From: a virus
Lineage: Duplodnaviria; Heunggongvirae; Uroviricota; Caudoviricetes
Strand: one strand, 5' to 3'
Length of the DNA stretch: 64,000 bases
Virus record (IMG/VR): IMGVR_UViG_3300029861_000002
This document shows positions 1,615-61,612 of the stretch, piece after piece (position 1 is the first letter of the stretch; each line of letters starts with the position of its first letter). The notes beneath the pieces are model-generated. The model saw only the letters and a program-made list of their open reading frames with translations. It did no database searches and had not been told where the DNA came from. A program made the position numbers and the translations under genes.

Positions 1615-2220
1615 ATGGCATACATTTATTAGATAACCAACGACATAAACTAGAAAGTTTATGTCGGAAAAACAGAGTTTTCTATTGAAAAGCGTTTTAG
1701 GGAACATTGCAAGGATGCTTTCAAGGAGCAAAATGAGAAACGCCCATTATATGCCGCTATGCGAAAATATGGGGTAGAGCATTTCCATATAGAACTTCTT
1801 GAAGAAACAGATAATCCAGAAGAGAGAGAAAGATTCTGGATTGAACAATTAGGAAGTTTTAAGTATGGATATAATGCTACCTTAGGCGGCGACGGGAGAA
1901 GATATGTTGATTATGATTTAGTAATTAAATTATATGACGAATGTCACTCTCGTAATAAAGTGCATGAGTTAGTTGGATATGATAAAGGGACTATTTCAAG
2001 AATATTGGATTCTATTTCTACTCATGAAGAAAGAGATCGTTTTGGTCATATTCAGCTTCAAAAGCCAGTAGCAAGATTAGATAAAAACACTGGAGAAATT
2101 TTGGAAGTGTTTGATTCTGTTAGTGAAGCGGAACGGAAGTATAATACTAACAGACATATAGGACAAGTATGTCTTGGGAAAAGAAAAACTGCTGGCGGAT
2201 TTAAGTGGAAATATATTTAA
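1615..2220 (+). CDS. GIY-YIG homing endonuclease (2 in-frame TAG)
   Basis: RBS AAAAAGGAG. Translation MAYIY[TAG]ITNDIN[TAG]KVYVGKTEFSIEKRFREH... matches the GIY-YIG core (IYxITN..NGKxYVGxT...R...H). The C-terminus ..KTAGGFKWKYI is shared with the GIY-YIG gene at 45540. Intact only if TAG at 1630 and 1651 is read. Ends with TAA. Confidence 0.7.
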
Positions 2221-2533
2221 GATAGTATCGCCAATCGGGATAGACACTGTTGTATATGCCGGCCGCATATAAACGAGGCGATTGTGTCAATAGCGAAAAC
2301 CGACTAAGCTATTCCGTTCGCTTGCGGTGATAATACAAGCAACTTAATAAATCCGACAAGTTTGGTGGTACTGCTGCGGATGCCGGGAGGAACAGGGGCC
2401 AAAACCACAAGACAGAGGAATGGGTTCGACTCCCATACGGCCGGCAATTAGGCTGGCGGTTGGTGTATAGTGTGGAAACAAGCATACTGTCAATCTTATT
2501 ACCCTGAGCCGAGGTTTATATCGGCCATTATAT

Positions 2534-2609
2534 GCTGGATTAGCTCAATAGGTAGAGCAATCGCCTTGTAAGCGATAGGTTAAGAGTTCGAGTCTCTTAT
2601 CCAGCTCCA
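2534..2609 (+). tRNA. tRNA-Thr(UGU)
   Basis: Acceptor GCUGGAU/AUCCAGC, anticodon loop cuUGUaa, T-loop TTCGAGT, encoded CCA. Confidence 0.85.
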
Positions 2610-2802
2610 GCCTCGGCAGAGGCGTTTAAACGCGGCAAGGGAGTGATTCCTCCTATCTGTAAGATATTGTGGCCACTTTATTGAGCAGTCCGTATGGTAA
2701 ATCGAGTCGGATAGGGTTGGATAGGGCGCAGAGAATTGTACCGCCAATTCCGAGCGCAAAGGCCTGAGGCCAATACCTGATATTAAAATCTATTGCCAAT
2801 AT

Positions 2803-2879
2803 GTTGTGCGTAGCTTAATTGGTAGAGCATCAGATTGTGACTCTGAAAGGTGCGAGTTCAAGCCTCGTCGTACACCCCA
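2803..2879 (+). tRNA. tRNA-His(GUG) with genomically encoded G-1
   Basis: Anticodon arm UCAGA-uuGUGac-UCUGA, T-loop TTCAAGC. G-1 (2803) pairs with C73 (2876), encoded CCA, one U1-C72 mismatch. Confidence 0.8.
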
Positions 2880-3610: not shown

Positions 3611-3613
3611 TAT

Positions 3614-4695: not shown

Positions 4696-5026
4696 GGGGA
4701 TGCGTAGGTTCGACGGGGTAATGAGAAACTAGGATACACGGGTAGGCATACCGCCTTAAGGAGCAACAAAATTAAACGACAACGATTATTTTTCTAATAA
4801 CATCGCAGCTTGAGCATAGCTCGCTGTTTTAATCCCTTGGATTTCTCTATTTTCCTTTAATTAAATAGAGTGGTGGAGGCAGAGTACAACTGGTACTGCT
4901 CTATGGTTATTAGTAGTTTCAGCTAAAACTCCATTTATAAAAGTTTAAAGTGAAACTATCGTGTAATAATATTCTAGTTATGTAGTTATTTCGGACACGG
5001 AGTGCGACTCTCCGTCATCTCCACCA
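4696..5026 (+). ncRNA. ssrA: tmRNA (SsrA), about 331 nt
   Basis: The 5' end GGGGATGCGTAGGTTCGACGGGG matches the tmRNA consensus GGGGnnGnnnnGGnTTCGACnGGG. The 3' end has T-arm CGGAG-TGCGACT-CTCCG, acceptor CATCTCC pairing with the 5' GGGGATG, discriminator A, CCA. The internal tag frame is GCA ACA AAA ... ATC GCA GCT TGA, giving (A)TKLNDNDYFSNNIAA. Confidence 0.8.
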
Positions 5027-5112: not shown

Positions 5113-5511
5113 ATGACAGAATTAGAAAGAGGATATTTGGCTGGCATTATTGATGGTGAGGGAAGTATTACTCTCACCAAGGATAAATAGTTTAGGTATC
5201 CAGTATTAGAAGTGTCTAGTACAACATCTCAAATTGTAGAATATCTTAAAGAGCATTTTGGAGGAGTTATTTCCAAGAAAAATGAGCGTAATCCAAAATG
5301 GAAACAGGCTTATATTTGGAAGATAGAGCGGAGAAAGGCTATTTCTTTGTTAGAAGAGATTGTCAGTTATCTTAATGAACCAAAGAAAAAAGCTAGAGCT
5401 TAGTTAATAATTAAAGACTATATACGCTTAACTCCTAGAAATGGGAGATATTCTGAAGAAATAAAATAGCAAAAACTTAAATTTGAAGAAGAATTTTTCA
5501 AGATAGAATAA
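5113..5511 (+). CDS. LAGLIDADG-family homing endonuclease (3 in-frame TAG)
   Basis: RBS GGAGGA. The N-terminus MTELERGYLAGIIDGEGSI is a LAGLIDADG motif. The frame stays open through TAG at 5188, 5401 and 5467 to TAA at 5509. It starts 87 nt after the tmRNA 3' end. The C-terminal extension beyond 5403 is less certain. Confidence 0.6.
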
Positions 5512-6874: not shown

Positions 6875-7447
6875 ATGGCCAAAGCAATGACTTAGGAAGA
6901 ATTCGAGAAGAGAGTATCAGAATATACAAAAGATAGTGTAGACGTTATTTCTAAGTATATTAACAAAAGAACAAAAGTTAAAGTTAGATGTAAAACTTGC
7001 GGTTTTGAATGGGGAATGTCTCCTGCATCTTTAATGCCGAATGCGGCATCTAAACATACTTTTGTTGGTTGTTCTAACTGTAAGTATGAAGAAGTAGAAT
7101 GTCAATGGTGTCACAAGAAATTTCGTAGATTAAAAACTGAATTGGCTAAAAATAAAAGCGGATTCGTATATTGTTCTAGGGAATGTGGAAACCGACATAA
7201 GAACTCTTTGATTATTTAGGTAAATGACGGTGTGAACTATCACAGAAATGCCTTTTTGGCTTACCCACACAAATGCGATATTTGTGAATGGGGTGAAGAT
7301 GAACGAGTTTTAGAAGTTCATCATTTAGATGAAGATAGGTCAAATAATAAGATAGAAAACTTGCGAATCTTATGTCCTATATGTCATAAAAAACTTACTT
7401 TGCATCTTTACTCATATAAAGAGTTAAAAGATAAATACGGAGGATGA
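6875..7447 (+). CDS. HNH homing endonuclease (2 in-frame TAG)
   Basis: RBS AAGGAGG. The N-terminus MAKAMT[TAG]EEFEKRV matches the common HNH-endonuclease N-terminal 'TQEEF' pattern. Zinc-ribbon Cys pairs, then the HNH core EVHHLDEDRSNNKIENLRILCPICH. One frame from 6875 through TAG at 6893 and 7217 to TGA at 7445. Flanked by a 23-bp tRNA-Pro 3'-end repeat. Confidence 0.75.
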
Positions 7448-16090: not shown

Positions 16091-17614
16091 ATGAATACAA
16101 TTCTTAACGCTATGAAGCAGATGGACAACATCACCACTACTGAAAACGGCGGCATTACCTATAAGTCTACGATGAGTGGAATCATGGATTTGTTCGCCAT
16201 GGGAGCTGCTTACCGCAAGCGCTCCGAGGATGACGTAATCTTCCTGTTCGATAAGGCTTTTAAGGAAGATGAAACTTATGCGCTCAAGTGCTTGTTTTAT
16301 CTGCGCGATGTGCGTGGTGGACAGGGCGAGCGCAGATTTTTCCGAGTAGCAACTAAGTGGTTGGCAAATCACCACACCGATGCAATGCGCCGCAATCTGA
16401 AGTATGTTCCCGAGTTCGGCAGATGGGATGACCTCTACGGCTTCGTTGGAACTCCCCTGGAAGATGAGGCTTTCGACATTATGTACCATCAGTTGGCTCT
16501 TGATGTTGAGTGTAAGACCCCTTCTCTTCTGGCTAAGTGGTTGAAGTCTGAAAATACCAGCTCCGCAGAATCTCGTAAGTTGGCTACTATTACTCGCACC
16601 CACTTCCGTATGACTCCTCGCCAGTATCGCAAGACTTTGTCCGTTCTCCGCAAGCGCATTAAGGTTCTTGAGAGACTTATGTCCGAGAATCGTTGGGACG
16701 AAATCGAGTTCGATAAGATTCCCTCTAAGGCGGGATTGATCTATCGTAATGCTTTCGCCCGTCATGACATTATGAGGGAGAAGGCTGATAAGCAGACTTA
16801 TGCGGAGTTTGCTAAGAGCACTGACACAAAGGTAAATGCCAAGGCCTTGAACCCCTGTGAGGTTGTCCATGAGGCGGTTAAGTTGAGTAGAGCATATCAT
16901 GCTGATGATACCGATCGTCTGATGATTGGCAAGTACTGGGATAATCTGGCAGATTATTTCCATGATGCCGTTTTCAATGGGGTTGCTGTTGTAGATACTT
17001 CTGCGTCTATGACAGGTGGCTTCAATGAGATTAATCCTATTGATGTGGCTATCTCTCTGGGAATGTATTGCGCTGAAAAGTGTAATGAAAGTTCTCCTTG
17101 GTATGGTCACTACATCACCTTCTCTCGTCAGGCTAGACTGGTACCTGTTGAGGGCATCGACTTCGTTGACAAGGTACATCGCATTTATAGCAAGAATCTC
17201 TGTGAGAATACTAACATTAAGAGTGTATTCGACTTAATTCTCAAGCTCACTATTGAGAATGGAGTAAAGCAGGAGGATATGCCTAAGAATGTAATCGTAA
17301 TTTCTGATATGGAGTTCGATTCCTGCGCCTCATTCGACGATAATTACGGTTATTGGAGTCGTTACAATAGAGATACCAAGTCTGAAATGGAGAAGATTGC
17401 AGACATTTGGAAGGCCCATGGTTATGAATTACCTAAGCTCGTTTTCTGGAATGTCCAGGCTCGTCAGGATAACATTCCTATGAGAGATAATGGCAGAGTT
17501 ACCTTTGTCAGTGGTTATTCTCCTGTGCTTTTCGAGCAGATTATGACCGGCAAGACTGGTATTGATCTTATCCTTGATAAGCTCAATAGTCAGAGATATG
17601 CGGTAATCCACTAA
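16091..17614 (+). CDS. Ro60-like protein (TROVE-like N-terminal region + vWA/MIDAS domain)
   Basis: 507 aa with RBS AAGGAGA. The MIDAS motif VVDTSASMTG and vWA-like C-terminal half sit behind an alpha-helical N-terminal region, the same architecture as Ro60/Rsr RNA-quality-control proteins. The TROVE assignment is inferred. Confidence 0.55.
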   Translation: MNTILNAMKQMDNITTTENGGITYKSTMSGIMDLFAMGAAYRKRSEDDVIFLFDKAFKEDETYALKCLFYLRDVRGGQGERRFFRVATKWLANHHTDAMRRNLKYVPEFGRWDDLYGFVGTPLEDEAFDIMYHQLALDVECKTPSLLAKWLKSENTSSAESRKLATITRTHFRMTPRQYRKTLSVLRKRIKVLERLMSENRWDEIEFDKIPSKAGLIYRNAFARHDIMREKADKQTYAEFAKSTDTKVNAKALNPCEVVHEAVKLSRAYHADDTDRLMIGKYWDNLADYFHDAVFNGVAVVDTSASMTGGFNEINPIDVAISLGMYCAEKCNESSPWYGHYITFSRQARLVPVEGIDFVDKVHRIYSKNLCENTNIKSVFDLILKLTIENGVKQEDMPKNVIVISDMEFDSCASFDDNYGYWSRYNRDTKSEMEKIADIWKAHGYELPKLVFWNVQARQDNIPMRDNGRVTFVSGYSPVLFEQIMTGKTGIDLILDKLNSQRYAVIH

Positions 17615-20789: not shown

Positions 20790-21070
20790 ATATGCCTGGT
20801 CGTAGAACTTCTAAGTTTACGAAGGATCAAAACGCCCTTCTTCAGGGAGAGGTTATGATCATTCTTGCGGAAAGTGAAGAGGCATTAACTATTGAAGAAA
20901 TTCAAGCAAGATCAATTACTCTTACAGGACTTTCTACTCAAAAGATTGCAAGACTACTCGGCCATTTGATTGAAATGGGAAACGTAACAAAAGCAAAGAG
21001 TAAGAGTCTTGGTAAGATGGTATATAAATCATTGGCCGTGATGAGGAGGCAGGGATATGATGTTTATTGA
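20786..21070 (+). CDS. hypothetical protein (possible winged-helix)
   Basis: 94 aa. Start overlaps the previous stop (ATGA-type coupling). Confidence 0.45.
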   Translation: MNMPGRRTSKFTKDQNALLQGEVMIILAESEEALTIEEIQARSITLTGLSTQKIARLLGHLIEMGNVTKAKSKSLGKMVYKSLAVMRRQGYDVY

Positions 21071-21310
21071 GGACACCTTTGATGTTATCTTCACTATTTA
21101 TCTAGGTAATTAGGTTATTGAGTAGTGGAGAATGCAAGCTCCTAGACCTTTTATTGAAGCTCAATTCATTTAGATAGTTCAGCAAATTGCTTCTTAGAAG
21201 TAGCCTATGAAAGTAGTAGTATCAAGAGAAGAAGTGATTTGGGACTAGTTTGAGCAAAAACATAAAGTTCTTCCAATAACTATGGAATTTCAAAACTATA
21301 AGGAGTAAAG

Positions 21311-21946: not shown

Positions 21947-23221
21947 ATGGCTTATTTTGGTCTGGTGACTAAGATTCAGAACGTGCGGAAAGACCCGAAT
22001 TCCGATCGGCTATATCTAGCGGATTGCTTTAATGAAGGAGTAATCGTAGGCCCTGACATGAAGACCGGAGATCTGGTGCTCTATCTGCCCACCGATGGAG
22101 AAATTGAACGCTGGTTTGGTAATGAATTCTGCCTTTTCCGCAAGAATGAAGATGGATCTATTCAGGGCGGATACCTTGAAAATAATGGCCATGTGCGGGC
22201 CATTAAGCTCCGCGGCAATCAGTCTTCTGGTATTGTCATTGCTCTTGATCGAGTCTATGAAAAGTTTGGTGACCAGCATTGGAGTAATGGAGATAAAGTA
22301 ACTACTATCAATGACAAGGAGTTTTGCCGTAAGTATATTCCTAAGCGAAAGAGCGATTCTACTTATGGAGCAAAGACTTCTTACAAAGGGCGCAAAGCTG
22401 AGGGGATTACTTATCCTGAGTTCTCTATGCATACTGATACCGAGCAGCTTGCATATAACTTTGATAAGTTCCGTGAGGGTGATGAACTAAATATGACCCT
22501 CAAGATGCATGGCACCTCTCAGCGCTCTATGAATACTTATGCAGAGCTTCCTAATGGTTTCTTCCGTCGCCTTTTCCATATGAAGAAGCGCACTAAGCAG
22601 GCTTATGTTCTTGGAACTCGCCGTTGTGTGGTGACTGAAAACTCTCAGGGGTACTATGGGAACGATCAGTTCCGTATGCCTCATCATGAAGCTTTAAAGC
22701 CCTATCTTGAGCCTGGGATGGAAGTTTTTTACGAAGTAGTAGGCTACTATGGGCCAAATGAAGAGAATACTATTATGCCTATTGGTGATAATACTAAAAT
22801 CAATGATAAGGCTTTTGTAAAGCAGTTTGGTAAACGGTCTATCTTCTCTTATGGCTGTGAACCCGGTCAGAGTAAAATGTATATCTATCGCATCACCTCT
22901 GAAAATGGAGAGAGAGAGTGGACTCCTGACGAAATTACTGCCTGGTGCGATTGGCATGGTTTTAATCGCGTTCCTGTAATTGAGAACTTCAAGTTTACTA
23001 CCGTTGAGGATCTTCAGGAGCGTATCAATAAATACTTCGAAGATCTCGCAGATCCGATCGGCCGCACCCATGTTAAGGAAGGAGTAGTTATCCGAATTGT
23101 AAATCGGCGTACTTTTACTGCTTTCAAGTCAAAAACCTTTGAATTTAAAGTTATTTCTGGGATTGCTACAGAGAGCGTAAATTCTAGTAATATTTCTGAA
23201 GATATTCTTGCGGAAATGTAA
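21947..23221 (+). CDS. putative ATP-dependent RNA ligase (Rnl2-like nucleotidyltransferase motif I)
   Basis: 424 aa. The segment TLKMHGTSQRS resembles the Rnl2/ligase motif I (KxHGxN/S lysine-adenylate site). RBS GAGGAGG. The family assignment is tentative. Confidence 0.45.
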   Translation: MAYFGLVTKIQNVRKDPNSDRLYLADCFNEGVIVGPDMKTGDLVLYLPTDGEIERWFGNEFCLFRKNEDGSIQGGYLENNGHVRAIKLRGNQSSGIVIALDRVYEKFGDQHWSNGDKVTTINDKEFCRKYIPKRKSDSTYGAKTSYKGRKAEGITYPEFSMHTDTEQLAYNFDKFREGDELNMTLKMHGTSQRSMNTYAELPNGFFRRLFHMKKRTKQAYVLGTRRCVVTENSQGYYGNDQFRMPHHEALKPYLEPGMEVFYEVVGYYGPNEENTIMPIGDNTKINDKAFVKQFGKRSIFSYGCEPGQSKMYIYRITSENGEREWTPDEITAWCDWHGFNRVPVIENFKFTTVEDLQERINKYFEDLADPIGRTHVKEGVVIRIVNRRTFTAFKSKTFEFKVISGIATESVNSSNISEDILAEM

Positions 23222-23317
23222 TTTACCCACAAATTTAAAAAAAAAGAGGGTAAAATGATTAAATCATCTCCTTTTATTTCTTATATAATGTAGACAATAA
23301 AAAGGAGATGATTTTTA

Positions 23318-24181
23318 TGCCAAAAGCATTAGATTTAACTGGTCAAAAGTTTGGAAAATTAACCGCTTTACGTAGATTACCAAATCAAGGTCGTAGAACT
23401 ATTTGGGAATGTTAGTGTGACTGTGGTAATATAATCCCCGTCCGCGCAGAAAATTTAAGAAGTGGGCATACTACCTCATGCGGATGTAAAAAGAGAGAGC
23501 CATCTAAAAAATTTGTTGATTTAACAGGACAGAAATTTGGGGAATGGACAGTATTATCAAAAGCAGAGAAAGAGAGCTACTGGCTATGTGAATGTTCTTG
23601 TGGAGTAAAAAGAGAAGTATATGCCCCATCATTAAAGAGTGGAAAATCTCTTTCTTGTGGACATTTATTTAAAAATTAGATTCGTAATCCTATTATAGGA
23701 AGCAGATATGGAAATTTAATTGTGTTAGAACAATTTAAAGAAAATGATACTTGGTGTTGTAAATGCTAGTGCGACTGTGGAAATATCACGATTGTAAAAA
23801 GACAAAATTTAACTTCTGGGAATACCTAGTCTTGTGGTTGTATAATCTCAAAAGGAGAAGCTAGAATAAAACGGATCTTGCAAGAAGCAAATATACCCTT
23901 TATTTCTCAATGGACGCCACAGGATTATCCAAATCAAAAATGTAAATTTGATTTTTACATAGACAATAAGTATGTAGTAGAGTTCGATGGTCCATAGCAT
24001 GAAGGTCAAGTAAGTGGATATTATACTAAAGAAAAAGTAGACGCTTTAATGCAAAGAGACTAGGAAAAAAATAAATATTGCCTATCTCACAATATTCCTT
24101 TATATCGTATTCCATACGAATATAGAGATACAATAACCTTAGAGCTGCTAACGGATGAAAAATTTCTCGTTAAATCTTGAA
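23318..24181 (+). CDS. homing-endonuclease-like protein with repeated Zn-ribbon modules and DUF559/Vsr-like nuclease C-terminus (7 in-frame TAG)
   Basis: RBS AAAGGAGA. Repeated LTGQKFG(K/E)LT...W(E/L)C[x]CDCGN...SG.T.SCGC modules, where x is encoded by TAG three times. The C-terminus FDFYIDNKYVVEFDGP[TAG]HEG matches the DUF559 restriction-endonuclease-like fold (FDGxQH). A single 288-codon frame to TGA at 24179. No ORF of 60 aa or more appears in the six-frame track here because of the TAGs. Confidence 0.65.
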
Positions 24182-24806: not shown

Positions 24807-25619
24807 ATGATTAGTCTGATTAACACGCGCAGTCATTGGACAGATGTAATTGAGCAAAATCATTTTCCCGATGGAACGCTGCATATTAATATGCCGCCCA
24901 ATTATTTTGATTACGATACCGTTCTTTGGGAGTATGAGAACGATGCAGAACTGTTCACTCTAATTTGCGTAAAGGGACACTTTAAAGATTGTCCCTTGAG
25001 GCTCGATATGCCATATATTCCTCATGCAAGAATGGATAGAGTGCAAGAACTTGAAGATGTGTTTACCCTTAAATATTTCTGTCAAGTAATCAATGGTCTT
25101 CACTTCGATAAAGTCATTGTAAGAGATGCTCATTCTAATGTAGCATTAGCTCTGCTCGATAGGGTAATTGATCTTACTCCTATTGGAGAAATCAAAGAGG
25201 CTATCAAACTTTTTGAGCATTATGAAAAAGAAACTCCCGTTCTATTTTTCCCGGACGAGGGAGCTATGAAGAGATATTCCACTCCAGCAATTAATCTTCC
25301 ATACGCCTTTGGAATTAAAAAGAGGGATTGGTCTACTGGAAAAATTCTTGGTCTACAACTAATGAATGGTGAGTTGGTTAAAGATAAGGGTGTTCTAATT
25401 GTAGACGATATTTGCTCTCGGGGAGGAACTTTCTATCACGCGGCAAACGCTCTAAAAGAAGCAGGAGCAAAAAATATTTATCTTTACGTCACTCATGCAG
25501 AACATACTATGGTTGAAGGTGATATGTATAATCAGGATATTGTAAAGAAAATCTTTACCACTGATAGCATCTTTAAGCCTGAGTGGGATACTAGAGGAAA
25601 GGTAGAAATTGTTCGATGA
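24807..25619 (+). CDS. ribose-phosphate pyrophosphokinase (Prs)-like phosphoribosyltransferase, a candidate NARP1 Adps
   Basis: PRPP-binding motif VLIVDDICSRGGT with a Prs-like N-terminal half. 270 aa, adjacent to the NAMPT-like gene. Confidence 0.55.
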   Translation: MISLINTRSHWTDVIEQNHFPDGTLHINMPPNYFDYDTVLWEYENDAELFTLICVKGHFKDCPLRLDMPYIPHARMDRVQELEDVFTLKYFCQVINGLHFDKVIVRDAHSNVALALLDRVIDLTPIGEIKEAIKLFEHYEKETPVLFFPDEGAMKRYSTPAINLPYAFGIKKRDWSTGKILGLQLMNGELVKDKGVLIVDDICSRGGTFYHAANALKEAGAKNIYLYVTHAEHTMVEGDMYNQDIVKKIFTTDSIFKPEWDTRGKVEIVR

Positions 25620-43234: not shown

Positions 43235-44146
43235 ATGATTATAGGATTATTATTAATAGCTATAATCGGGTTAATAATTTATATCTATTATCTCAAAAAG
43301 CAAACCCTTGAAGTAGTTTAGATTAACACAGATAATCAAAGAAAAAACGCTGAAATAGAAAAAGAAATAGCACATAATAGAGAAGTGTTATCTAACATAA
43401 AAAATAATATAACATTTGAGAACGATATTCTTTCTTCTTTATTAAAATCTTAGGAAGAAATGCGGGAAAGTGCTTAGAAACAAGCTGATGAAGCCTATTA
43501 GGCACGCGTCTCCGCACTTGTAAAATCCTACAAAGAAAAAGAATAGGAACTTTCTTTGACTTTTGATGCTAAAAATCAAGATTTGCTAAAGAAAATTTCT
43601 ATTGAAGCCGGGAAATTAGCTGATTTATAGGCTAAGTAGCTTTCCTATATTTAGGCCAAATAGAGATAGGAAGAAATTGACTCTAATCAAGATTATTATC
43701 GTCTTGCTCTTGATGAAATAGATATTAATGATATTACGTTATTGCGCGAATTACAACCAAGATTTGTAAAGAAAGAAAGTATAGATAAACTAATATGGGA
43801 AGTATATTATAAGCCAGCTTATGATATTTTAATGGCCCATTTGTTTCCCAAGGCAGTTAAATATTGCGGTATCTATAGAATAACTGATTTAACTACAGGC
43901 AAGTCCTATATTGGACAATCGGTTGATATAAAAGAACGATTTAGATAGCATATTAAATCTGCTTTAACCTATGGAAAGGTAACTAATAAGTTATACTCTG
44001 CTATGCAGAAATCTGGAGTTCATAATTTCGTGTTTGAAGTCTTAGAAGAAGTAACCAGAGACAAACTAAACGAGAGAGAAACCTATTGGATTGAGTTCTA
44101 TAAGACTAAAGAATTAGGTCTTAATGGAACTAAAGGAGGAGCTTAA
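43235..44146 (+). CDS. GIY-YIG homing endonuclease with N-terminal TM/coiled-coil region (about 11 in-frame TAG)
   Basis: The C-terminal half CGIYRITDLTTGKSYIGQSVDIKERFR[TAG]HIKSAL...YWIEFYKTKELGLNGTKGG is a GIY-YIG core. The single 304-codon frame is interrupted only by TAG. Confidence 0.6.
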
Positions 44147-44426: not shown

Positions 44427-45053
44427 ATGAAGATTATTAAGCCAGATGTTGAACTTATTACACCTATTGATGGTGAAACAATCCTTAAACGAATTGAATA
44501 GTGTGGTAGAGTATGTTATAAATCCGAGGATAAAATTACAGAAGATAGCGCTGTAAAATTCGTATAGAATATTATCAAGAGAGGCCATGAGGCGGTTCTT
44601 GAGCATTGTTCTTTTACCCTTAAATTTATTTGCGATAGAGGCGTAAGTCATGAAATTGTACGCCATAGATTGGCAGCTTATTGTTAGGAATCTACGAGAT
44701 ATTGTAATTACTCAAAAGATGGATTTGGAAATGAAATTACGGTAATTGAACCTTGTTATCTTGAACCAAATAGTTCAAAATATATACTATGGGAAATGTC
44801 TTGTGCGGAATCTGAAAAAAAATATTTTGAGCTTTTGTTCGAAGGCTGCACTCCACAAGAAGCAAGAGCAGTTCTGCCTAATAGTTTAAAAACTGAGGTA
44901 GTTATGACTGCGGACTTGCGTGAGTGGCGACATTTCTTCAAGCTTCGTTGCTCTCCAGCCGCGCATCCACAAATGAGAGAAGTTGCAATCCTCGGTTTGA
45001 ATAAAGTCAAGGAAAAGATTCCTGTAATTTTTGATGATATTACTCCTGATTGA
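44427..45053 (+). CDS. thyX: flavin-dependent thymidylate synthase ThyX (3 in-frame TAG)
   Basis: ThyX signature RHRLAAYC[TAG]ESTRY (RHRx7SxR). The 209-codon frame runs through TAG at 44499, 44550 and 44667. The C-terminal region RCSPAAHPQMREVA is also ThyX-like. Confidence 0.7.
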
Positions 45054-45539: not shown

Positions 45540-46202
45540 ATGTCTTGTGGAATATATAAAATTACTAATTTAGTAAATGGTAAAATCTATGTTGGATAGA
45601 GTGTTGACATAGAGCGAAGATTCTAGAAACATTTATATGCAAATGATGATTTTATTATTCATAAAGCAATAAAAAAGTATGGTAGATAGAATTTTAGTCT
45701 TTAGATTTTAGAAGAGTGTTCATAGGAACTTCTAAATGATAGAGAAATCTATTGGATAAAAACTCTAAATTCTATTACTCCAAATGGATATAACATGATT
45801 AATGGTGGAAGTAATGGAGCTGGATTTGCAAAAGGATATAAAGTTATACAATATAATTTAAATGGTGAGTATATAGCTGAATATCCCAGCGCGAAATAGG
45901 CAAGTAGAGAAACTGGTATAGATCATCATACTATTTGTGATTGCTGTAATGGAATAAATCATCATGCTGGAGGATTTTAGTGGAAGTATGAAAACTCTGA
46001 CAAAGAAATAACTCCAATAAATATTCGTTTAGATTTTACTGTGCTTTAGATTAATAAAGACACTGATGAAGTAATTTAGGAATTTAATTCAATAGCAGAA
46101 GCTTCTAATAAACTTAATATTGCGAAAAGCACAATTTGTAATGTTTGTAATGGAAAAGGCAAAACTGCTGGCGGATTTAAATGGAAATATAAGAATAAAT
46201 AA
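45540..46202 (+). CDS. GIY-YIG homing endonuclease (about 9 in-frame TAG)
   Basis: MSCGIYKITNLVNGKIYVG[TAG]SVDIERRF[TAG]KH is a GIY-YIG core. The C-terminus ..KTAGGFKWKYKNK is shared with the 1615 gene. The 221-codon frame is broken only by TAG. Confidence 0.65.
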
Positions 46203-49059: not shown

Positions 49060-49593
49060 ATGGCTAAACACATGGTAAAATGTTTTTACTGTGGAGAAGT
49101 ATTTGATGCATCAACTACACCATACGTTAAACCAAATTCAAGACGTTACGCTCATAAGACCTGTGCGCAAACGGCCGAAGAAAATAAAACTCAAGAAGAA
49201 AAAGATAGACAACTATTAGAAAATTATATAAAGAAGTTATTTGGAATTAATTGTATTTCTCCAAAAATTAAAAAACAAATTGAAACCTTTAGAAAAGATA
49301 ATAATTATTCATATACTGGAATGTATAAAACGTTAAAATACTTTTTTGAGATAAAAGGTAATTCTATTGAAAAGGCCAATGGAGGAATAGGAATAGTTCC
49401 TTTTGTCTATGATGAAGCATATCTTTATTGGAGAGCATTATGGGAAGCAAGAGAAAGAAATGAGCAAATAGATATAGGAAAGTTTATTTTGCCTGTAAGA
49501 GAAGTCCATATAGAACCTCCTCAACGGCAACCAATGAAACATATACGAAAGCTATTTACTTTCTTAAATGAGGAGGAAGCGCATGAAGAGTAA
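49060..49593 (+). CDS. hypothetical Zn-binding protein (replication module)
   Basis: 177 aa with an N-terminal CFYCG...HKTC motif. Promoter/leader upstream. Precedes DnaB. Confidence 0.5.
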   Translation: MAKHMVKCFYCGEVFDASTTPYVKPNSRRYAHKTCAQTAEENKTQEEKDRQLLENYIKKLFGINCISPKIKKQIETFRKDNNYSYTGMYKTLKYFFEIKGNSIEKANGGIGIVPFVYDEAYLYWRALWEARERNEQIDIGKFILPVREVHIEPPQRQPMKHIRKLFTFLNEEEAHEE

Positions 49594-51121
49594 TTATATA
49601 GATACAGCGGCGATTACTTAGGTAATTGGATGTGTATTCAATAATGCTTCTATTCTTGATGATACAGATAAGTATATAATTCATGAAGATGACTTCCAAG
49701 AAGATTTTCATAAGATAATTTTCGGTAGTATCTATAATATCCATCTAACAGGTAGTCAAGTTAATATAGACGCGATTATAGATTATCTAGCAAACAGACC
49801 AAAGTTTGACGCCATATTTAAGCAAAACAAGGGTGTAGAATATCTCCTTGAAGCATCGCAAAGTGCAAGGCAAGATACTTTTAATTATTATTATAATAGA
49901 TTAAAGAAGTTTACTTTGTTAAGAGCATATAGCAATTTTGGTCTTGATGTTAGCTATCTTTATGATCCAAATAATATTCTCGATACCAAAAAACGCCAAA
50001 TGCAAGAAGATTGGCTGGATAATACTAGCTTAGTTGAAATAGCTCATGCTATTGATACAAAAATAGATGAAATCAAAAGTAAGTACATAGAAGATGATCT
50101 TGGATTAGGCTATCAAGCCGGAGACGGAATCAATGAACTTATTAGTGATTTAGAACAGCATCCCGAAGTTGGTATTCCACTATATGGCCCGTTAATTAAT
50201 ACAGTAACAAGAGGAGCAAGATTGCGAAAATTTTATTTGCGGTCGGCGGCTACGGGAACCGGTAAAACTAGATCTATGATAGCGGATGCGTGTAATTTTG
50301 CGTGCAATGAAATCTATCATGACCAATTTGGATGGATTAAAAATGGAACCTCTCAACCAACTTTGTTTATTGCCACAGAGCAAGATAAAAGCGAAGTTCA
50401 AACAATGATGTTAGCTTTCCTATCTGACGTAGATGAAGAACATATCCTTAACGGTCAATACTTTGAGGGTGAAAAAGAGAGGGTGCTAAAGGCCGCAGAA
50501 ATAATTAAACGCAGTCCAATTTGGATAGAAGAATTACCAGATTTTTCTTTACAAGATGTAGAGAATAAAATAAAAAAGAATATTAGAGAAAATGAAGTTA
50601 AATATGTTCTTTTCGACTATCTTCAAACGTCGCTTAAAATTCTTGAAGAAATTAGTAAGAAGTCTGGGGGAGTTAGATTAAGAGAGGATAATATCTTATT
50701 TATGCTCTCCGCTAGATTGAAAGATTTAGCTAATAAATATGGTGTATTTATCATGTCTGCAACTCAATTAAACGCCGATTATTAGAGTAGTGAAACGCCA
50801 GATCAAAATCTATTAAGAGGCGCAAAAAGTATAGCCGATAGAATAGACGTTGGCATGATTCTACTAAGTGTTACAGATGAGGACTTAGTTAAGTTAGATC
50901 CAATACTAGAGGGTAACAAGAACTTATTGCGTCCGAATCTAAAATTATCTATCTATAAAAATAGACGAGGTTCGTACAAAGGAGTATATCTATGGTGTTC
51001 TGCTAACTTAGGAACTTGTAGAATTTTACCACAATTTTGTACTAATTGGAGACATGAGATGGTGGGCATTGAAGATATTCGAGTAATTGTCGATGAAGGG
51101 CCAGCAGCTTGGGAAAAATAA
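49583..51121 (+). CDS. DnaB-family replicative helicase (2 in-frame TAG)
   Basis: Walker A RSAATGTGKTR and DnaB motifs DYLQTSLK, SATQLNAD. The 512-codon frame runs through TAG at 49619 and about 50783. Confidence 0.75.
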
Positions 51122-52701: not shown

Positions 52702-54453
52702 TTGGAATATTCATTAATAAATCCAAGAAATTAGAATTATAGTGCTTTAGAGCAAGTATTAGTTAATAGGGGTATTTAGTATAATGATATATAGCATTAT
52801 TTAACAGTATCAGAAAAAGATAATTTATCCCCCTTACTTCTCAATAACATTGAGGACGCTGCTAAATTAATTATTAAACATATTTTAAAGGACGATTCTT
52901 ACATCTATATCTAGGTAGATAGCGACTGTGATGGATATACTTCTTCTGCGTTGTTATTAAACTACCTTCATGCACAATTTCCTTCGGCCATTAACAAGTT
53001 TATTTATAACTTTCATTCTGGCAAGATTCATGGAATAAAACCAGAGTTAATCCCCGAAAATGTTTCACTTGTTATTGCGCCAGATTCTAGCTCCAATGAT
53101 TATCAAGAGCATGAAGAACTAGCTAATCGCGGAATTGACGTACTGGTCATAGACCATCACTTAGCAGATAAAGTATCCGAATATGCCTGCGTTGTTAATA
53201 ATCAGCTTTGCGATTATCCAACAAAATCATTATCTGGTGTAGGAGTAGTTTATAAGCTATGCCAATATATGGATAGTATTTGCGGAACCGCATATGCGGA
53301 CGATTATCTTGATATTGTAGCAACTGGTCTTGTTGGAGACATGATGGATATTCGAGATTTTGAAACTCATTATCTTATCCAGTAGGGGCTATAGAGATCG
53401 AGTCTCCGCAATCCATTTATTAAAGGTATGGCTGATAAAAATGTTTATTAGTTAGGGAAAGGAGATTTAACTCCTATAGGAGTAGCGTTCTATATTGTTC
53501 CTCTTGTTAATGCTATTACTCGTGTGGGTACTCAAGACGAAAAGTAGATTCTATTTGAAAGTATGCTTGAATGGAAAGCATATGATCTTATTCCTTCTAC
53601 TAAACGAGGATGTAAGGGACAAGAAGAAACAAGATTAGAACAAGCACTAAGAGTTTGTACTAATGTTAAAAATCGTTAGACTAGAACTAGAGATGCAGAA
53701 GTTGAATGTATAGAGAATATAATCTAGGAAAATAATCTTCTGGAGCATAAAGTTCTGGCAATTAAATTAGATAATATGTCTATTGATAGAGGTATTACTG
53801 GGTTAATTGCTAACGAGTTAATGAGTAAATATAAACGACCTGTAGTTCTTCTTTCTAAAACAGAGCATGAAGGATTGGAGGCTTGGGAAGGGTCTGCTAG
53901 AGGATATGAAAAATCTAAAATGAAAGACTTTAGATAGTTTGTTAAAGAATCAAACTTAGTATTCCTCGCCGAAGGACACGCCAATGCTTTCGGTTTTGGT
54001 ATTTATGATAAAGATTTTGAAAGTTTTATTTCATGGTCAGATAAATAGCTAAAAGATATAGAATTTTCTCCAAGTTACAAGGTAGATTTTATTTACTCTA
54101 TGTCAGATATTAATTCTAAGGATATTCTCGATTTAGGCGATGCAAAATATCTTTGGGGTCAAAATATCGACGAGCCGCTTATCGCGGTGGAAAATGTTGC
54201 AGTAACAAATGATATGATTGGTCTCATGTCACGAGACAAGAATCCTACTTTGAAGATTCAATTACCAAATGGAGTTACTTGCATCAAGTTTAAATCAAGC
54301 GAAGAGGAGCTAGATAATTTATCTAGCGAATTAGGTTGCGTGAGTATAAATTTGATTGGTAAACCAGAAGTAAATAGATACTTCGGTAGTGTGACACCAC
54401 AAATTATTATTACAGATTATGAAATTATAAGTAGATAGAAGTATTACTTTTAA
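52702..54453 (+). CDS. RecJ-like DHH/DHHA1 phosphoesterase (exonuclease) (about 11 in-frame TAG)
   Basis: TTG start coupled to RBS AAGGGAG. DHH motifs VDSDCDG and VLVIDHH, and DHHA1 motif AEGHANAFGFG. A single frame of about 583 codons is interrupted only by TAG. The last TAG is at 54436. Confidence 0.65.
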
Positions 54454-54492: not shown

Positions 54493-55260
54493 ATGAGACG
54501 TTTTATGAGTATTATACTAAGTTTAATAATTTTATTATCTATAATGTGTAGTTGCAATAGTCCTTTCATTTCTATTGCATCAGCATATTCAGTACCGTAT
54601 AACAGCAGTATTAGTTATACCTATAATGATTTAGATACATTGGTTGAGCTTATTGCGGAACAAATCTCTAATATGAACGCCGCACATCAAATGGCCGATG
54701 CTGCTAGACAGTTAGGCTATTCTGAAAATCATGATGTTATCGAACTAGCCGTGAATGAATATGATAAGGCGAATGAGCTAAGACAATCTTATCAAGATGT
54801 ATATGATAACCTCATGGAACATTGGCATCAAAAGGAAGAAGAGTACCCAGTGGCAACATATATTTGGAGCTATTTCAAAGACTTAGGTTATAACGATCAA
54901 GTTTGTGCGGGCATACTTGGTAATATAATGACTGAAGTTGGTGGTAATACATTGAACATTCAATATGAATTAAGCAATTCTTCATATTATGGAATGTGTC
55001 AGTGGAATAAAGCGTATTCTGAGGTTTGGGGAGCCTCATTAGAAGAGCAATGCAATTATTTGGAAAATACTATTGAATATGAATTTAATACATTCGGTCA
55101 CGCCTATAAGAAAGGGTTTGACTATAATGATTTTCTAAATATGACAAGTATAACTGATGCTGCTTTAGCATTTGCGAAATGCTATGAGAGGTGTGGATCT
55201 GGAAGTTATACGACAAGACAAAATAATGCAATTATCGCGTATAATTATTTTGTAAGCTAA
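54493..55260 (+). CDS. secreted/lipoprotein-like protein with tail-lysozyme-like domain
   Basis: Signal peptide with a lipobox-like LSIMCSC. The C-terminal CAGILGNIMTEVGGNTLNIQYELSNSSYYGMCQWN matches the same lysozyme-like family as the endolysin N-terminal domain. 256 aa. Confidence 0.55.
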   Translation: MRRFMSIILSLIILLSIMCSCNSPFISIASAYSVPYNSSISYTYNDLDTLVELIAEQISNMNAAHQMADAARQLGYSENHDVIELAVNEYDKANELRQSYQDVYDNLMEHWHQKEEEYPVATYIWSYFKDLGYNDQVCAGILGNIMTEVGGNTLNIQYELSNSSYYGMCQWNKAYSEVWGASLEEQCNYLENTIEYEFNTFGHAYKKGFDYNDFLNMTSITDAALAFAKCYERCGSGSYTTRQNNAIIAYNYFVS

Positions 55261-57147: not shown

Positions 57148-57189
57148 TATAGTATAATATATTATATAGTAATATAAGAGAGGTATAAT

Positions 57190-60100
57190 ATGAGTTACTT
57201 TAACAATCATTCGCATACGGAGTTTAGTAACTTGCGTTTGCTTGACTGTATAAATAAACCAGAAGAGCTGATTGATAAAGCTATTGAAGTTGGATTAACG
57301 GGAATAGCTATCACGGACCACGAATCTCTCTCCGCGCATATGAGAGTAAATAAATATGCGAAAAAAATCAAAGAAACTAATCCCAGTTTTGTTATAGCTC
57401 TTGGTAATGAAATCTATCTTACAGATACTAGAGATTTAGGACAAAGATACTATCACTTTATCTTAATTGCTAAAGACGAAATTGGTTATAGGGGACTAAA
57501 GGAGTTATCTTCTATCGCCTGGATGAATGGTTATTATGATAGAAGAATGGAAAGAGTTCCTTTGCTTAAATCAGAATTAAAAGATGTAATGCAGAGATTT
57601 AAAGGGCATATTATTGGCACTACTGCTTGTATTGGCGGTGAATTAGGTCAATCCATTTTAAATCTAAATAATTGTGAAGAAATAAAAGATGAAGTAAACG
57701 CAAAGCGTTATCATCAACAGATTGTAGATTTTATTACTTTCTGTATAGATGTATTTGGTCAAGATGATTTTTATATTGAGTGCGCACCAGCGTCATATCC
57801 TGACCAGATTATTGCAAATAAAAGAATGTTAAAAATTGCAGAAGCGTTCTCTGTTAATATGTGTATCGGCACAGATGCCCACTATCTAACAAAAGAAGAT
57901 AGATATGTCCATAAAGCATATTTAAATTCTAAGGGCGGAGAAAGAGAAGTCGATAGCTTCTATGAATTTACTCGTCTTATGGACGAAACTGAAACTAGAG
58001 AATTACTTCGTTTGAGCTATGAAGATAATATTATTGATTGGATTTTTAATTGCTCAAACGAGATTAAAGATAAAATAGAATTTTACTCTCTGGAAAAGCA
58101 TCAGTCTATTCCAGAAGTAGAAGTAACTGATTACCCTCCTACTGCATGGTGGGGAACTAACAATGATTATGCAGATGAAATGTCTAAGTATCCAATCCTA
58201 AAATCACTTTTCACTTCCGATAATATTCAAGAGCGTTATTGGATAAATGAATGCTGGAAAGCGCTAGAAGCAAAAGGTATTGATTGGATTGATAGACCAG
58301 AATATCCAGAAAGACTTGAAGAAGAAGCAAGAGTAAAGAGAGTGATTGGAGAGAAATTACAAACTTGTATGTTCGCTTATCCAAATACATTAAAACACTA
58401 TGTTGATTTGTTTTGGGATTGCGGAAGTACGGTAGGTGCGGGTCGAGGTTCGGCTTGTGCAGCTCTTAATCATTATCTTCTTGGAATTACTCAGCTGGAT
58501 CCAATCGAATGGGATCTTCCTTTCTGGAGATATATCAATGACAAAAGAACAGAACTTGGAGATATTGATTTGGACTTGGCTCCATCTAAGATTCAAAAAA
58601 TCTTTGCTGAAATCAGAAAAGAACGAGGAGAATTAGGGCTAGTCCAAGTATGTACCTTCGGAACTGAGGGAACTAAATCTGCCATATTGACAGCCTGTAG
58701 AGGTTATAGATCTGACGATTATCCAGAAGGTATTGATGTTGATATGGCTCAATATATGAGTTCCCTAATTCCGCAGGAAAGAGGCTTCTTGTGGCCCATT
58801 GAGGACGTCGTTAATGGAAACCCAGAAAAGGGACGTAAAGCAGTTACTACATTTGTAAATACTGTAAATCAATATCCCGGTCTTCTAGATATTATTACTA
58901 GAATTCAAGGGCTTGTAAATAAACGTTCTAGTCATGCATCCGGCGTTATTTTGTTTGATGAAAATATTTTCGACAGTGCCGCAGTTATGAGAACACCAAA
59001 GGGTGCATTAATTACTCAATGGGATTTGCATGACCAAGAGGCTGCTGGTTCTGTTAAGTATGACTTTCTCTTAACAGCAGTTCAAGATATTATTATCCAA
59101 GCTGTTGAATTACTACAAGAAGATGGAGTTATCGAAAAAGATTTAACTTTAAGAGAAGTATATAATAAATATCTTCATCCATCTGTCTTGCCTCAAGATG
59201 ATAAAAAAATGTGGGATGCTTTAGCTAATGGTGATGTTCTTGGATGTTTCCAATTTGACTCAAGCGTTGGTGCACAAGCCGCGAAGAAGATTAAACCTCA
59301 AAATCCGCATGAGATGGCTGACGCGAATGGATTGATGCGCCTAATGACTTCCGAAAAAGGTGCTGAAACTCCAATGGAGAAGTATGTTCGATTTAAGAAT
59401 AATATTTCTCTTTGGTATCAAGAAATGGACAGAGAAGGATTAACAAAAGAAGAACAAAGGATTCTCGAACCGCATTTCTTACGTTCTTATGGTGTTCCTC
59501 CTAGCCAAGAACAAATGATGACCATGTTACAAGACGAGAATATCTGCGGATTTACTCTTGAAGAAGCGAATGCTGCAAGAAAAATTGTTGGTAAAAAGCA
59601 AATGAATAAAATCCCAGAACTTAAAGAAAAGGTCTTAAACTCTGCGAAATCTCCCGCGTTAGGACATTATGTCTGGACTTATGGCATCGGCCCGCAAATG
59701 GGTTATTCGTTCAGTATTATCCATGCTCTTGCTTATAGTTTTGTTGGTATGCAAACTCTGTATCTTGCTACTCATTTTAATCCGGTATATTGGAATACGG
59801 CGTATCTGATTGTAAATAGTGGTGCTATTGATGAAGAAGAAGGAGAACAATCAGATTATACAAAGATTGCAAAAGCAATAGGAGAAATTCGTAATGCAGG
59901 AATTAAGGTTTCCCTTGTGGATATTAATAATTCTGACTTTGGATTTAAGCCAGATGTAAAAAATAACTAGATTCTTTTCGGATTAAAGGGTTTGTCAAAT
60001 GTTAATAATGAACTGATAAAAACTATTGTAGATAATCGACCCTATGTATCTCTTGTTGATTTCTATAACAGAGTTCATCCTAATAAACAAGCAATGATTT

Positions 60101-61092
60101 CTTTAATTAAAGGTGGAGGATTCGACCAGTTTAGTTCACGTATGGAGGCTATGATTCAATATATATGGATTACCTGCGATAAGAAAAAGAGAATTACTTT
60201 ACAAAACCTTCCTGGGTTAATGAGATATGATCTTATCCCCTATGAAGAAAAGTTTGTGATGCCGAAAAGAGTGTATGAATTTAATAGGTATCTAAAAGCA
60301 GAGTGTAAAGATCCTTACAATGTAGCAAAATATAAACTCGACGAAAGAGCAATCACCTTTCTCGTTGAAATTGATTGCGAGGATCTATTGGAAACAGATA
60401 ATCTAGCATGGTATATTGACATAAAAGCCTGGGATAAAATTTATCAAAGTTACATGGACGTATTTAGAAATTGGATCTCTGAAAATAAAGAAACGATTTT
60501 AGATAATTTAAACACCACCATCTTTATGGAAGATTGGAAAAAGTATGCTTCAGGGAACATATCTTCTTGGGAAATGGAATCTCTATGTTTTTATTATCAC
60601 GACCATGAGCTAGCGAATATTAACAATAGCAAATATGGATTTGTAGACTTCTTTAGCCTTCCAGAAGAACCTCAAGTAGATAAAGTATTTAAAAAAGGTG
60701 CTTCTTTAATTCCTATTTATAAACTGCATAAAATCTGCGGGACGTGCATTGCAAAAAATAAGGTGAAGAGTACTGTATATCTTCTTACAACAACTGGAGT
60801 AGTAGCAGTTAAATTCAGACAAGAATACTTTGCTTTGTTTGATAAACAAACCTTCCAAAGAAACGCAGATGGAACAAAGAGAGTTGTAGAGAAGTCTTGG
60901 TTTAATAGAGGTAATATGATTGTTGTGCAAGGGATTAGACGAGGCGATGAATTTGTAACAAAGAAATATGCAAGTTCTGGAGGCCATCAACTTTATCACA
61001 TTGATGAAATTATCAATGGAACAGATCTAATCTTGAGAAGCGAAAGAAAACAAGGAGAAGATGAAGATGAAGATAGTAGCATTAATGGGTGA
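57190..61092 (+). CDS. dnaE: DNA polymerase III alpha subunit (DnaE-type, PHP domain) (1 in-frame TAG)
   Basis: PHP N-terminus HSHTEFSNLRLLD..IAITDH and Pol III alpha core. TAG at 59968 joins the 926-aa and 366-aa track ORFs in frame. The C-terminal LKGLSNV..IVDNRPYVSLVDFYNRV is a DnaE-like tail. About 1300 codons. Confidence 0.85.
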
Positions 61093-61612
61093 AGCAGGAA
61101 GCGGTAAGGATACTATTCTCCATAGAATTATGGAGAAGTATCCTTCCTATTTCAATGAAATTATTAGTTGTACGACTCGACCTCCTAGGCAGGGAGAGAA
61201 AGAAGGAGTTAATTATCACTTCTTATCCGTTGAAGATTTTATTAGAAAAATCTTAAATGGAGATATGCTAGAGGCTACTGAATTTAATGGTTGGCACTAT
61301 GGAACAGATAGTCAAAGTCTAACAATAGATAAGATAAATATAGGAGTATTTAATCCAGAAGGAGTTAGATGCTTACAGGAAGATGAAAACATTGAACTGT
61401 ATGTATTTTATGTGCGGGCCGCGGGTAAGTAGCGTCTTTTAAGATAGCTGAATAGAGAAGAAAATCCTGATGTAGACGAAATAATTAGAAGATACAAAGC
61501 GGATACAGAAGATTTTAGTTTTCTTAATGATATAAAATATATAACTCTTTAGAACAATACCTTAGATGATATTGATATAGCTGTTGATACTATATTTGGA
61601 CAATTCTATTAA
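61067..61612 (+). CDS. guanylate kinase-like nucleoside monophosphate kinase (3 in-frame TAG)
   Basis: P-loop MGEAGSGKDTIL and guanylate-kinase motif TTRPPRQGEKEGVNYHFLS...GWHYGT. The frame runs through TAG at 61430, 61445 and 61577 to TAA at 61610. Confidence 0.6.

Follow-up and report, generated by a model that had tools for sequence, protein, structure and literature searches.

Reassignment of the stop codon TAG is already well documented in phages of the gut. Borges et al. (bioRxiv 10.1101/2021.08.26.457843) described gut-phage clades which read TAG as glutamine (Gln) and are predicted to infect Firmicutes or Bacteroidetes, for example the "Agate" clade with genomes of 154 +/- 27 kb and the genetic codes 11, 15 and 4. 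In these phages the recoding is strongly tied to suppressor transfer RNAs (tRNAs), which are found in about 40% of the TAG-recoded genomes, TAG no longer serves as a terminator, the recoding of replication genes varies, and lysis genes are preferentially recoded, as is an intron homing endonuclease in Agate. Proof of TAG as Gln by mass spectrometry exists for crAss-like phages only (Peters et al., PMC9523058), and block-wise dual coding has been described in the Mgcod paper (bioRxiv 10.1101/2022.06.29.495998). The Lak megaphages of Prevotella, a Bacteroidota host, have TAG-recoded genomes of about 540 kb and encode release factor 2 (RF2) (PMC8346664), and in E. coli the amber suppressors supE (tRNA-Gln CUA) and su+7 (tRNA-Trp CUA, charged with Gln) are known (PMC9976931). 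Herein we analyse a stretch of 64,000 nucleotides, called the window below, from the Caudoviricetes record IMGVR_UViG_3300029861_000002, in which TAG appears to be a sense codon. As the best explanation, and one that we regard as very likely, the window would come from the genome, about 130-150 kb long, of a gut phage that decodes TAG as Gln (genetic code 15) by means of its own tRNA with the anticodon CUA, tRNA(CUA), and that uses this codon to a graded extent from gene to gene.

When open reading frames (ORFs) are defined by TAA and TGA ends only, the plus strand holds 85 ORFs covering 85% of the window, and 32 of these 85 contain 103 in-frame TAG codons. After small ORFs overlapping tRNA genes were dropped and three starts corrected, about 20 confident TAG-bearing genes on the plus strand are left, which carry 77 TAG and about 16 of which have a family match (Table 1); several of the small ORFs with TAG, lying in 2.4-6.5 kb and at 9719, overlap tRNA genes and are spurious. 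The figure of at least 26 frames with clear homology, given in an earlier note on this DNA, is therefore somewhat high. Its counts for the endolysin, the GIY-YIG genes at 43235 and 45540, ThyX, guanylate kinase, DnaB and DnaE are those of Table 1, and the two TAG it assigned to a RecA-like ATPase (AAA_24 here) and to each of two tail-fibre-like ORFs are found as well; for the RecJ-like nuclease and for one homing endonuclease the presence of TAG holds but the number does not (13 rather than about 11, and 6, at 23308-24180, rather than 7). The motifs it quoted, MT-TAG-EEF, YVG-TAG-SVDIERRF-TAG-KH and RHRLAAYC-TAG-ESTRY, are all present.

The comparison of coding density proposed in that note gives, with a crude ORF caller on the plus strand, 69.8% under code 11 and 85.1% once TAG counts as sense; counting TGA as sense gives 68.1%. 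The gain of 15 points from TAG lies above the threshold of Borges et al. (bioRxiv 10.1101/2021.08.26.457843), namely a gain of more than 10% for contigs of 5-100 kb and of more than 5% for those of at least 100 kb, and TGA brings no gain. For the endolysin, whose frame starts with GTG downstream of a AAAGGAGG ribosome-binding site, the chance of 470 codons without TAA or TGA is about 2e-10 or less as judged from the off-frame rates of these two codons together. Moreover, TAG does not sit in linkers between separately complete ORFs: single Pfam domains run through it, namely Phage_lysozyme2 (profile 1-140 of 140), Amidase_2, Thy1, Guanylate_kin, DnaB_C, DHH and GIY-YIG. In the relatives the frame beyond TAG is conserved at 62-94% amino-acid identity, and the in-frame stops of their conserved genes are nearly all TAG. 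As to the gene ends, said earlier to be TAA or TGA, 62 of the 85 ORFs finish with TAA and 23 with TGA; this count is partly built in, the ORFs having been delimited by these very codons, and the informative part is the homology past TAG together with the 53 TAG-free ORFs, all of which meet TAA or TGA before any TAG.

One could still suppose that TAG remains a stop, the genes being pseudogenes, split genes or products of rare read-through. Release factor 1 (RF1) of a standard-code host would indeed still compete at UAG, and suppressor tRNAs are detected in only the 40% or so of TAG-recoded phages mentioned above. Such a supposition would nevertheless have to account for 10-13 TAG and not one TAA or TGA over 470-584 codons, for domains continuous across TAG, for essential genes being hit (DnaB, DnaE and ThyX among them), and for frames after TAG being conserved in dozens of independent assemblies; at 50% read-through for each of ten sites, only about 0.1% of the endolysin would be full-length. 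We consider it hardly tenable. The reading frames and their conservation demonstrate, at the level of sequence, that TAG is translated in this phage.

The identity of the inserted residue can be approached through bacterial homologs of the endolysin. From bacterial genomes 80 homologs were taken and their codons read directly, and the 75 loci without in-frame stop were used, including isolates of Oscillospiraceae, Flintibacter, Butyrivibrio, Acutalibacter, Colidextribacter and Butyricicoccus. At the endolysin TAG sites 41, 147 and 275 these homologs have Gln in 41 of 41, 38 of 41 and 48 of 50 cases, always encoded by CAG or CAA, that is 127 of 132 over the three conserved columns; a fourth TAG column has Gln in 17 of 41, and at the remaining TAG sites the columns vary, showing K, E, G or A. 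Pooled over the ten sites, Q accounts for 156 of 420 residues and tryptophan (Trp) for 2 of 420. In the endolysins of viral relatives every in-frame stop is TAG, and where TAG falls on a column at least 80% conserved in bacteria, it falls on a Q column in 25 of 28 cases. A similar picture comes from the phages themselves. Over all genes common to the window and four non-redundant close relatives, the 60 aligned window-TAG sites are occupied in the relatives by TAG (17), CAA (20), CAG (3), glutamate (Glu) codons (5), lysine (Lys) codons (3) and never by TGG, so that 23 of the 43 non-TAG sites are CAA or CAG against a Gln background of 2.8%. For the ORF at 21057-21308, all six TAG correspond to Gln codons in orthologs of 72-74% identity, and in ThyX the TAG at 44685 is matched, in solved structures, by the motif Gln of RHR..S.SQ.SQRY, as the earlier note had expected. 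The guanylate kinase TAG sites are poorly aligned in alignments with PDB entries and uninformative on the residue.

A further set of 120 database endolysin homologs (P0001-P0120) has Q at nearly all window-TAG positions; it was discarded as evidence for Gln because it is circular, the stored proteins not matching a table 11 translation and the DNA having TAG where the protein has Q. For example in loci L001-L005 the DNA reads TAG at positions where the stored public protein reads Q. Public gene calls for this family have already taken TAG as Gln.

The decoder can be named as well. The amber suppressor tRNA at 14995-15069, whose existence in this phage the earlier note had put forward, is a class I tRNA with a canonical cloverleaf, an 8-nt D-loop with GG, a 5-bp anticodon stem, a 4-nt variable loop and a TTCGAAT T-loop; its anticodon loop is CUCUAAA, it has G73, G2-C71, G10, U35 and A37, an encoded CCA end and an unpaired U1·U72, and it is found at a syntenic position in the relatives L086-L091. 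Its short variable loop excludes the Ser, Leu and bacterial Tyr types. Overall similarity is uninformative (best matches Gln 73%, Ile 72%, Thr 72%), and only the acceptor end discriminates: among the tRNAs of these phages, G73 with a weak 1:72 pair occurs only in tRNA-Gln and tRNA-Trp, while tRNA-Lys and tRNA-Glu show A73 and G1-C72. Gln identity in bacteria is set by G73, U1-A72, G2-C71, G3-C70, G10, U34/U35/G36, A37 and U38, and Gln is also what an amber suppressor of tRNA-Trp origin receives (PMC9976931); Gln charging would thus be expected for tRNA(CUA) whichever its ancestry. ARAGORN labels this gene tRNA-Pyl, a label it gives to any CTA anticodon. Decoding as pyrrolysine is rejected, for the fold is canonical and the TAG sites align with Gln, not Lys; the Pfam and PHROG scans of the window proteins gave no pyrrolysine-related family, no search being aimed at pylS or pylBCD. 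Just upstream, a promoter-like site at 14950-14978 is a weak match to the consensus (9 of 12), which is not evidence of function.

Translation of TAG as another residue has to be weighed against these data, be it Trp through a tRNA of Trp type with C35U, Glu through charging by glutamyl-tRNA synthetase (GluRS) and failed amidation, or Lys. The anticodon loop differs by one change from CUCCAAA in the tRNA-Trp of the phage, tRNA(CUA) shares the Trp elements A9, G4-C69 and G5-C68, and some TAG sites do align with E or K. On the other side stand the near-uniform Gln at the conserved endolysin columns and the scarcity of Trp in the pooled ones, the exchanges in close relatives, where TAG is swapped with CAA/CAG 23 times, with GAA/GAG 5 times and with TGG not once, the complete Gln agreement of the ORF at 21057, and the Trp-derived suppressor which takes Gln. 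We judge another residue very unlikely; Trp, Glu and Lys are poor fits. Gln at TAG is well supported, as the earlier note had proposed, and rests on three independent lines, namely the Gln columns of bacterial endolysins, the exchange of TAG with CAA and CAG among phages, and the acceptor end of the tRNA. That this decoding goes through the suppressor tRNA of the phage is a prediction we make with high confidence.

Several points weigh against this reading. Endolysin site 323 is E in 45 of 50 bacterial homologs and site 111 is K in 32 of 40; these are ordinary exchanges among Q, E and K, yet conservation alone leaves room for some Glu. The body of tRNA(CUA) by itself cannot tell Gln from Trp ancestry. 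Neither an aminoacyl-tRNA synthetase nor a release factor was found among the scanned proteins of the 64 kb, some small ORFs being unscanned, and the charging enzyme is accordingly presumed to come from the host. In a few genes a late TAG may act as a leaky stop, for example in the RecJ-like gene, whose last TAG lies 5 codons ahead of its TAA.

The host is probably a member of Oscillospiraceae or related Clostridia (Firmicutes). The nearest non-phage homologs of the endolysin are overwhelmingly from Oscillospiraceae and other Clostridia, including cultured isolates, and binning has placed the contig of one relative (148,971 bp) in a metagenome-assembled genome of Oscillospiraceae. The ORFs of the bacterial homologs are free of in-frame TAG, and 6 of 69 terminate with it, which is consistent with a host using the standard code. 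It might be argued instead that the host itself reads TAG as Gln, the phage tRNA merely topping up the supply. Absconditabacteria phages share the altered code of their host (Borges et al.), and the host of the present phage is a predicted one. The closest bacterial endolysin homologs just described are at odds with this proposal, and a phage entering a standard-code cell would have to begin with genes like those of the TAG-free block. We know, moreover, of no bacterium in which TAG means Gln. A recoded host is in our opinion highly improbable.

As for how TAG is used, Gln-type codons amount to 107 TAG, 377 CAA and 173 CAG in total, that is 16% TAG, and by per-gene Fisher tests the distribution of TAG over the genes is non-random, with shares reaching from none in GyrA to nearly all in a homing endonuclease (Table 1). 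The eight homing-endonuclease-like genes pooled have 48.6% TAG versus 13.7% in the remaining genes between 34.6 and 64 kb (p = 2e-9), while the block of 13.6-34.5 kb has 1.2% versus the same 13.7% (p = 1e-6), where 1.2% stands for 2 TAG among 168 Gln-type codons with the homing endonuclease and the ORF at 21057 set aside. The gene of the suppressor tRNA(CUA) is itself located within this block. The reassignment had been called genome-wide; this goes too far, the use of TAG being strongly gene-specific and some 20 kb essentially TAG-free. Three of the TAG-free genes, at 16091-17614 (DUF2828/DUF7788), 21947-23221 (RNA ligase) and 31617-32393 (Band_7), use nearly only CAG and AAG and have a G+C content at third codon positions (GC3) of 0.40-0.50, whereas the rest of the window favours CAA and AAA with GC3 near 0.25. 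For example the first has CAA 0 and CAG 11, AAA 0 and AAG 37, and GC3 0.50, and the third has CAG 16 and CAA 2. Such genes may owe this usage to early expression matched to the host or to having been acquired recently.

A mechanism can be proposed on this basis. The tRNA(CUA) would be charged with Gln by the host, either directly by glutaminyl-tRNA synthetase or by a non-discriminating GluRS together with GatCAB, and once charged it would outcompete RF1 of the host at UAG, the phage genes terminating with TAA or TGA only. The suppressor tRNA, the tRNA array and the block of RNA-repair and NAD (nicotinamide adenine dinucleotide) genes would need no suppression, while the genes with 6-13 TAG each, namely those for endolysin, homing endonucleases and RecJ-like nuclease, would yield protein only once suppression had become efficient. 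The TAG load may in this way delay or gate the production of endolysin and nucleases, as proposed for other recoded phages; both this timing function and the identity of the charging enzyme are what we infer. The replication genes DnaB, ThyX, the RecJ-like gene and guanylate kinase carry TAG too, so that early genes using the standard code is no clean rule here, which speaks against the timing.

Alternatively, the unevenness might come from gene history and drift of codon usage with no regulatory role, TAG still being sense: AT-rich, long-resident genes and mobile homing endonucleases would gain TAG from CAA or CAG, and recent or highly expressed genes would not. In line with this, TAG density tracks low GC3 (the gene at 45540, the richest in TAG, has GC3 0.17), several TAG-free genes have foreign-looking codon usage (16091-17614 and 31617-32393), TAG and CAA interchange freely at the same sites among close relatives, and a second lysozyme-domain gene at 54493-55260 is without TAG. 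Drift would less readily account for an endolysin that is TAG-rich across its sub-family (4-10 TAG in 17 relatives), for two endolysin sites at which L001-L005 all have TAG although identity is down to 62%, and for the bias to lysis and homing-endonuclease genes, of which other recoded clades gave an independent instance (Borges et al.). We regard drift alone as possible rather than probable. The regulatory reading of the uneven TAG use seems to us about evenly balanced between right and wrong, the pattern fitting a neutral, history-driven account equally well; the reassignment of TAG is independent of it.

The first acceptor pair of the suppressor deserves separate attention. Among the unique CTA tRNAs of the clade that end in CCA (loci L086-L165), 19 of 24 are mismatched at 1:72 (13 U·U, 2 C·U, 2 A·C, 1 U·C and 1 C·C). 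The other elongator tRNAs are nearly always paired there, except tRNA-His and four isolated cases (Gln, Ile, Leu, Tyr), and in the tRNA-Gln genes of these phages the pair is A1-U72 or U1-A72. The mismatch might raise Gln charging and so offset the loss of G36, or it might be a substrate for 5'-end editing by the Thg1-like protein, yielding A1-U72 as in the phage tRNA-Gln. The phage tRNA-His at 2804-2879 has U1·C72 and C73 and no encoded G-1/G1, and these ends, together with the Thg1-like gene, suggest templated 3'-5' repair or editing of 5' ends, perhaps including that of the U1·U72 suppressor. That the unpaired 1:72 is a dedicated feature of the code change, forming with the YqeY-like protein and the transfer-messenger RNA (tmRNA) a toolkit unlike the described modules of RF2 and synthetases, is in our view unlikely. 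Were it true, activation of the suppressor, beyond its transcription, would time the production of endolysin and nucleases. This mismatch in CTA suppressors is the only lead of the present analysis that may be new, and it is speculative. As to YqeY, which we take to be related to the tail domain of GatB, it is conceivable that the phage protein is tied to the formation of Gln-tRNA.

Other oddities of the suppressor-type tRNAs were seen in the relatives. In L092, L098, L101, L124, L132, L133, L139, L155, L162 and L164 the CTA tRNAs are 89-95 nt long; their variable region bears an additional arm of some 15-20 nt, and they often follow directly upon tRNA-Ser(UGA); the examined loci of phages with such long CTA tRNAs have almost no in-frame TAG. 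A tRNA with the anticodon TTA, of ochre-suppressor type, is found at 1106-1178 of L103, and in L146, L147, L148, L150, L151, L155 and L156 ARAGORN reports a four-base "taaa" anticodon in an 8-nt loop. The contigs of L147, L148, L152 and L157 have an endolysin with 4-5 TAG and no CTA tRNA in the stretch examined.

The window has a G+C content of 36.7%, and all its credible genes are on the plus strand. In the array at its beginning the tRNA genes are interspersed with a ROOL RNA, a tmRNA and a number of small genes for homing endonucleases; the ROOL RNA is flanked by two tRNA-Gln genes. The apparent tag frame of the tmRNA reads ...NDNDYFSNNIAA and stops with TGA, and tmRNAs are also present in the relatives L102, L124 and L139; as a speculation, the phage tmRNA might help handle read-through of host genes terminated by TAG. 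A further Rfam tRNA match at 9326-9446 (46.6 bits), not called by ARAGORN, has a 61-nt insertion within the anticodon arm and may be intron-containing or otherwise interrupted. Near the homing endonucleases no group I or group II intron was found at the Rfam gathering threshold. The region of 16-34.5 kb encodes DUF2828/DUF7788, a nucleotidyltransferase, a metallophosphoesterase, RNA ligase, phosphoribosyl pyrophosphate synthase and YqeY, as well as nicotinate phosphoribosyltransferase (NAPRTase), NAD synthase, the Thg1-like protein, an AAA_33 kinase, Band_7 and PhoH. The gene at 36029-36370 has no family match in the Pfam and PHROG scans, and its position and hydrophobic segments, the latter read by eye, point to a putative holin. 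From 36.5 kb on there are RNase H, GyrB, GyrA, ligase, ThyX, the AAA_24 ATPase and DnaB, as well as primase, the RecJ-like nuclease, a superfamily 1 (SF1) helicase, DnaE, guanylate kinase and NrdD. The 64 kb contain neither a terminase nor a virion structural module.

Table 1. Features of the window and their use of TAG (kb, approximate region; TAG share, TAG among Gln-type codons)
Feature	Position	Strand	TAG	TAG share	Remarks
Array of 26 tRNA genes	1-16 kb				ARAGORN
GIY-YIG homing endonuclease	1615-2220	+	2		within tRNA array
tmRNA	4696-5026				Rfam RF00023, 69.9 bits vs gathering score 47; missed by ARAGORN
LAGLIDADG gene	5113-5511	+	3		
HNH gene	6875-7447	+	2		
tRNA-Gln UUG	8368-8443	+			A1-U72, G73; ARAGORN
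ROOL RNA, full length	8464-9059				RF03087, 350 bits, model 1-574 of 574
tRNA-Gln CUG	9079-9153	+			A1-U72, G73; ARAGORN
Standard-code-compatible block	13600-34564	+			RNA-repair, tRNA-related and NAD-salvage genes
Amber suppressor tRNA, anticodon CUA	14995-15069	+			ARAGORN; Rfam tRNA model 61.6 bits; sequence read by hand
RNA-repair, tRNA-related and NAD-salvage genes	16-34.5 kb	+			
Conserved ORF, 83 codons	21057-21308	+	6		
Homing endonuclease, PHROG 374/559/9084	23308-24180	+	6		island inside otherwise TAG-free block
YqeY-like protein	25616-26065				PF09424; PHROG annotation "tRNA amidotransferase"; in TAG-free block
Thg1-like protein	29622-30467				PF04446 in orthologs from L001 and L003
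Endolysin, then holin-like gene	34.6-36.4 kb	+			
Endolysin, Phage_lysozyme2 + Amidase_2	34618-36027	+	10	43%	no TAA/TGA in 469 codons
Holin-like, two predicted transmembrane helices	36029-36370	+	1		directly 3' of endolysin
Replication and nucleotide genes	36.5-64 kb	+			
GyrA				0%	
GIY-YIG endonuclease	43235-44146	+	11	58%	
ThyX	44427-45053	+	3		
GIY-YIG/NUMOD homing endonuclease	45540-46202	+	9	90%	9 of 10 Gln-type codons
DnaB-like helicase	49568-51121	+	2		
RecJ-like DHH/DHHA1/RecJ_OB exonuclease	52702-54453	+	13	52%	
Second Phage_lysozyme2-domain protein, 255 aa	54493-55260	+	0		vs 10 TAG in endolysin
DnaE-type polymerase	57190-61092	+	1	2%	TAG at 59968
Guanylate kinase	61061-61612	+	3		TAG inside kinase domain
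NrdD				0%	

Among GenBank phages the gyrase region has no megablast match, and GyrA reaches at most 37% identity to any of them by tblastn, so that a cultured or annotated close relative is not at hand for comparison. Metagenomic relatives are many, with contigs of about 105-150 kb. The nearest, IMGVR_UViG_3300045988_075249, is 100% identical in one protein and only 93% in the endolysin, and is therefore a relative with a different genome. For practical purposes, this contig and its relatives need gene calling with TAG as Gln: the standard code loses about 15% of the coding sequence and splits the endolysin, the RecJ-like nuclease, ThyX, DnaB, guanylate kinase and all the homing endonucleases.

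To sum up by comparison with known systems, every main feature found here has a precedent, and this kind of reassignment is already well described in gut phages; the suggestion that it is undescribed for a Firmicutes-type phage with its own suppressor tRNA does not stand, since such phages are already in Borges et al. Like those phages, and Agate in particular, the present one has TAG at Gln positions, a phage tRNA(CUA), a host lineage that probably uses the standard code and TAG unused as terminator; its relatives have contigs of 105-150 kb, and lysis and homing endonuclease genes are preferentially recoded while replication genes are variably so. The likeness to Agate is suggestive, concerning genome size, host phylum and recoding pattern only, as the window is without a terminase for placing the clade. 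Unlike the code-change module of Borges et al., no RF2 or aminoacyl-tRNA synthetase is seen in these 64 kb, and besides endolysin and homing endonucleases the strongest recoding here is that of the RecJ-like nuclease.

With the crAss-like phages our lineage shares the reassignment, a phage suppressor tRNA and the contrast of standard-compatible with recoded blocks; it is unrelated to those phages of Bacteroidota hosts, and its recoding is scattered gene by gene and not gathered in a single late module. Lak phages likewise have TAG recoded, a suppressor tRNA with a large tRNA array, and recoded replication genes, whereas the lineage here is Firmicutes-associated and of about 130-150 kb. The resemblance to supE and su+7 lies in the tRNA, which is of class I, carries CUA and G73, pairs weakly at the first acceptor position and inserts or would insert Gln at UAG; those two are weak chromosomal suppressors in cells where TAG is still a stop, while here a gene may carry 10-13 sites and TAG is no terminator. 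Altogether the window adds one Firmicutes-associated lineage to the recoded gut phages, and a clear case at that, with the densest recoding on the endolysin and DNA-cutting enzymes beside a standard-compatible block of tRNA, RNA-repair and NAD genes, a pattern that agrees with, but does not extend, the earlier published view of recoding as a gate on harmful late functions.

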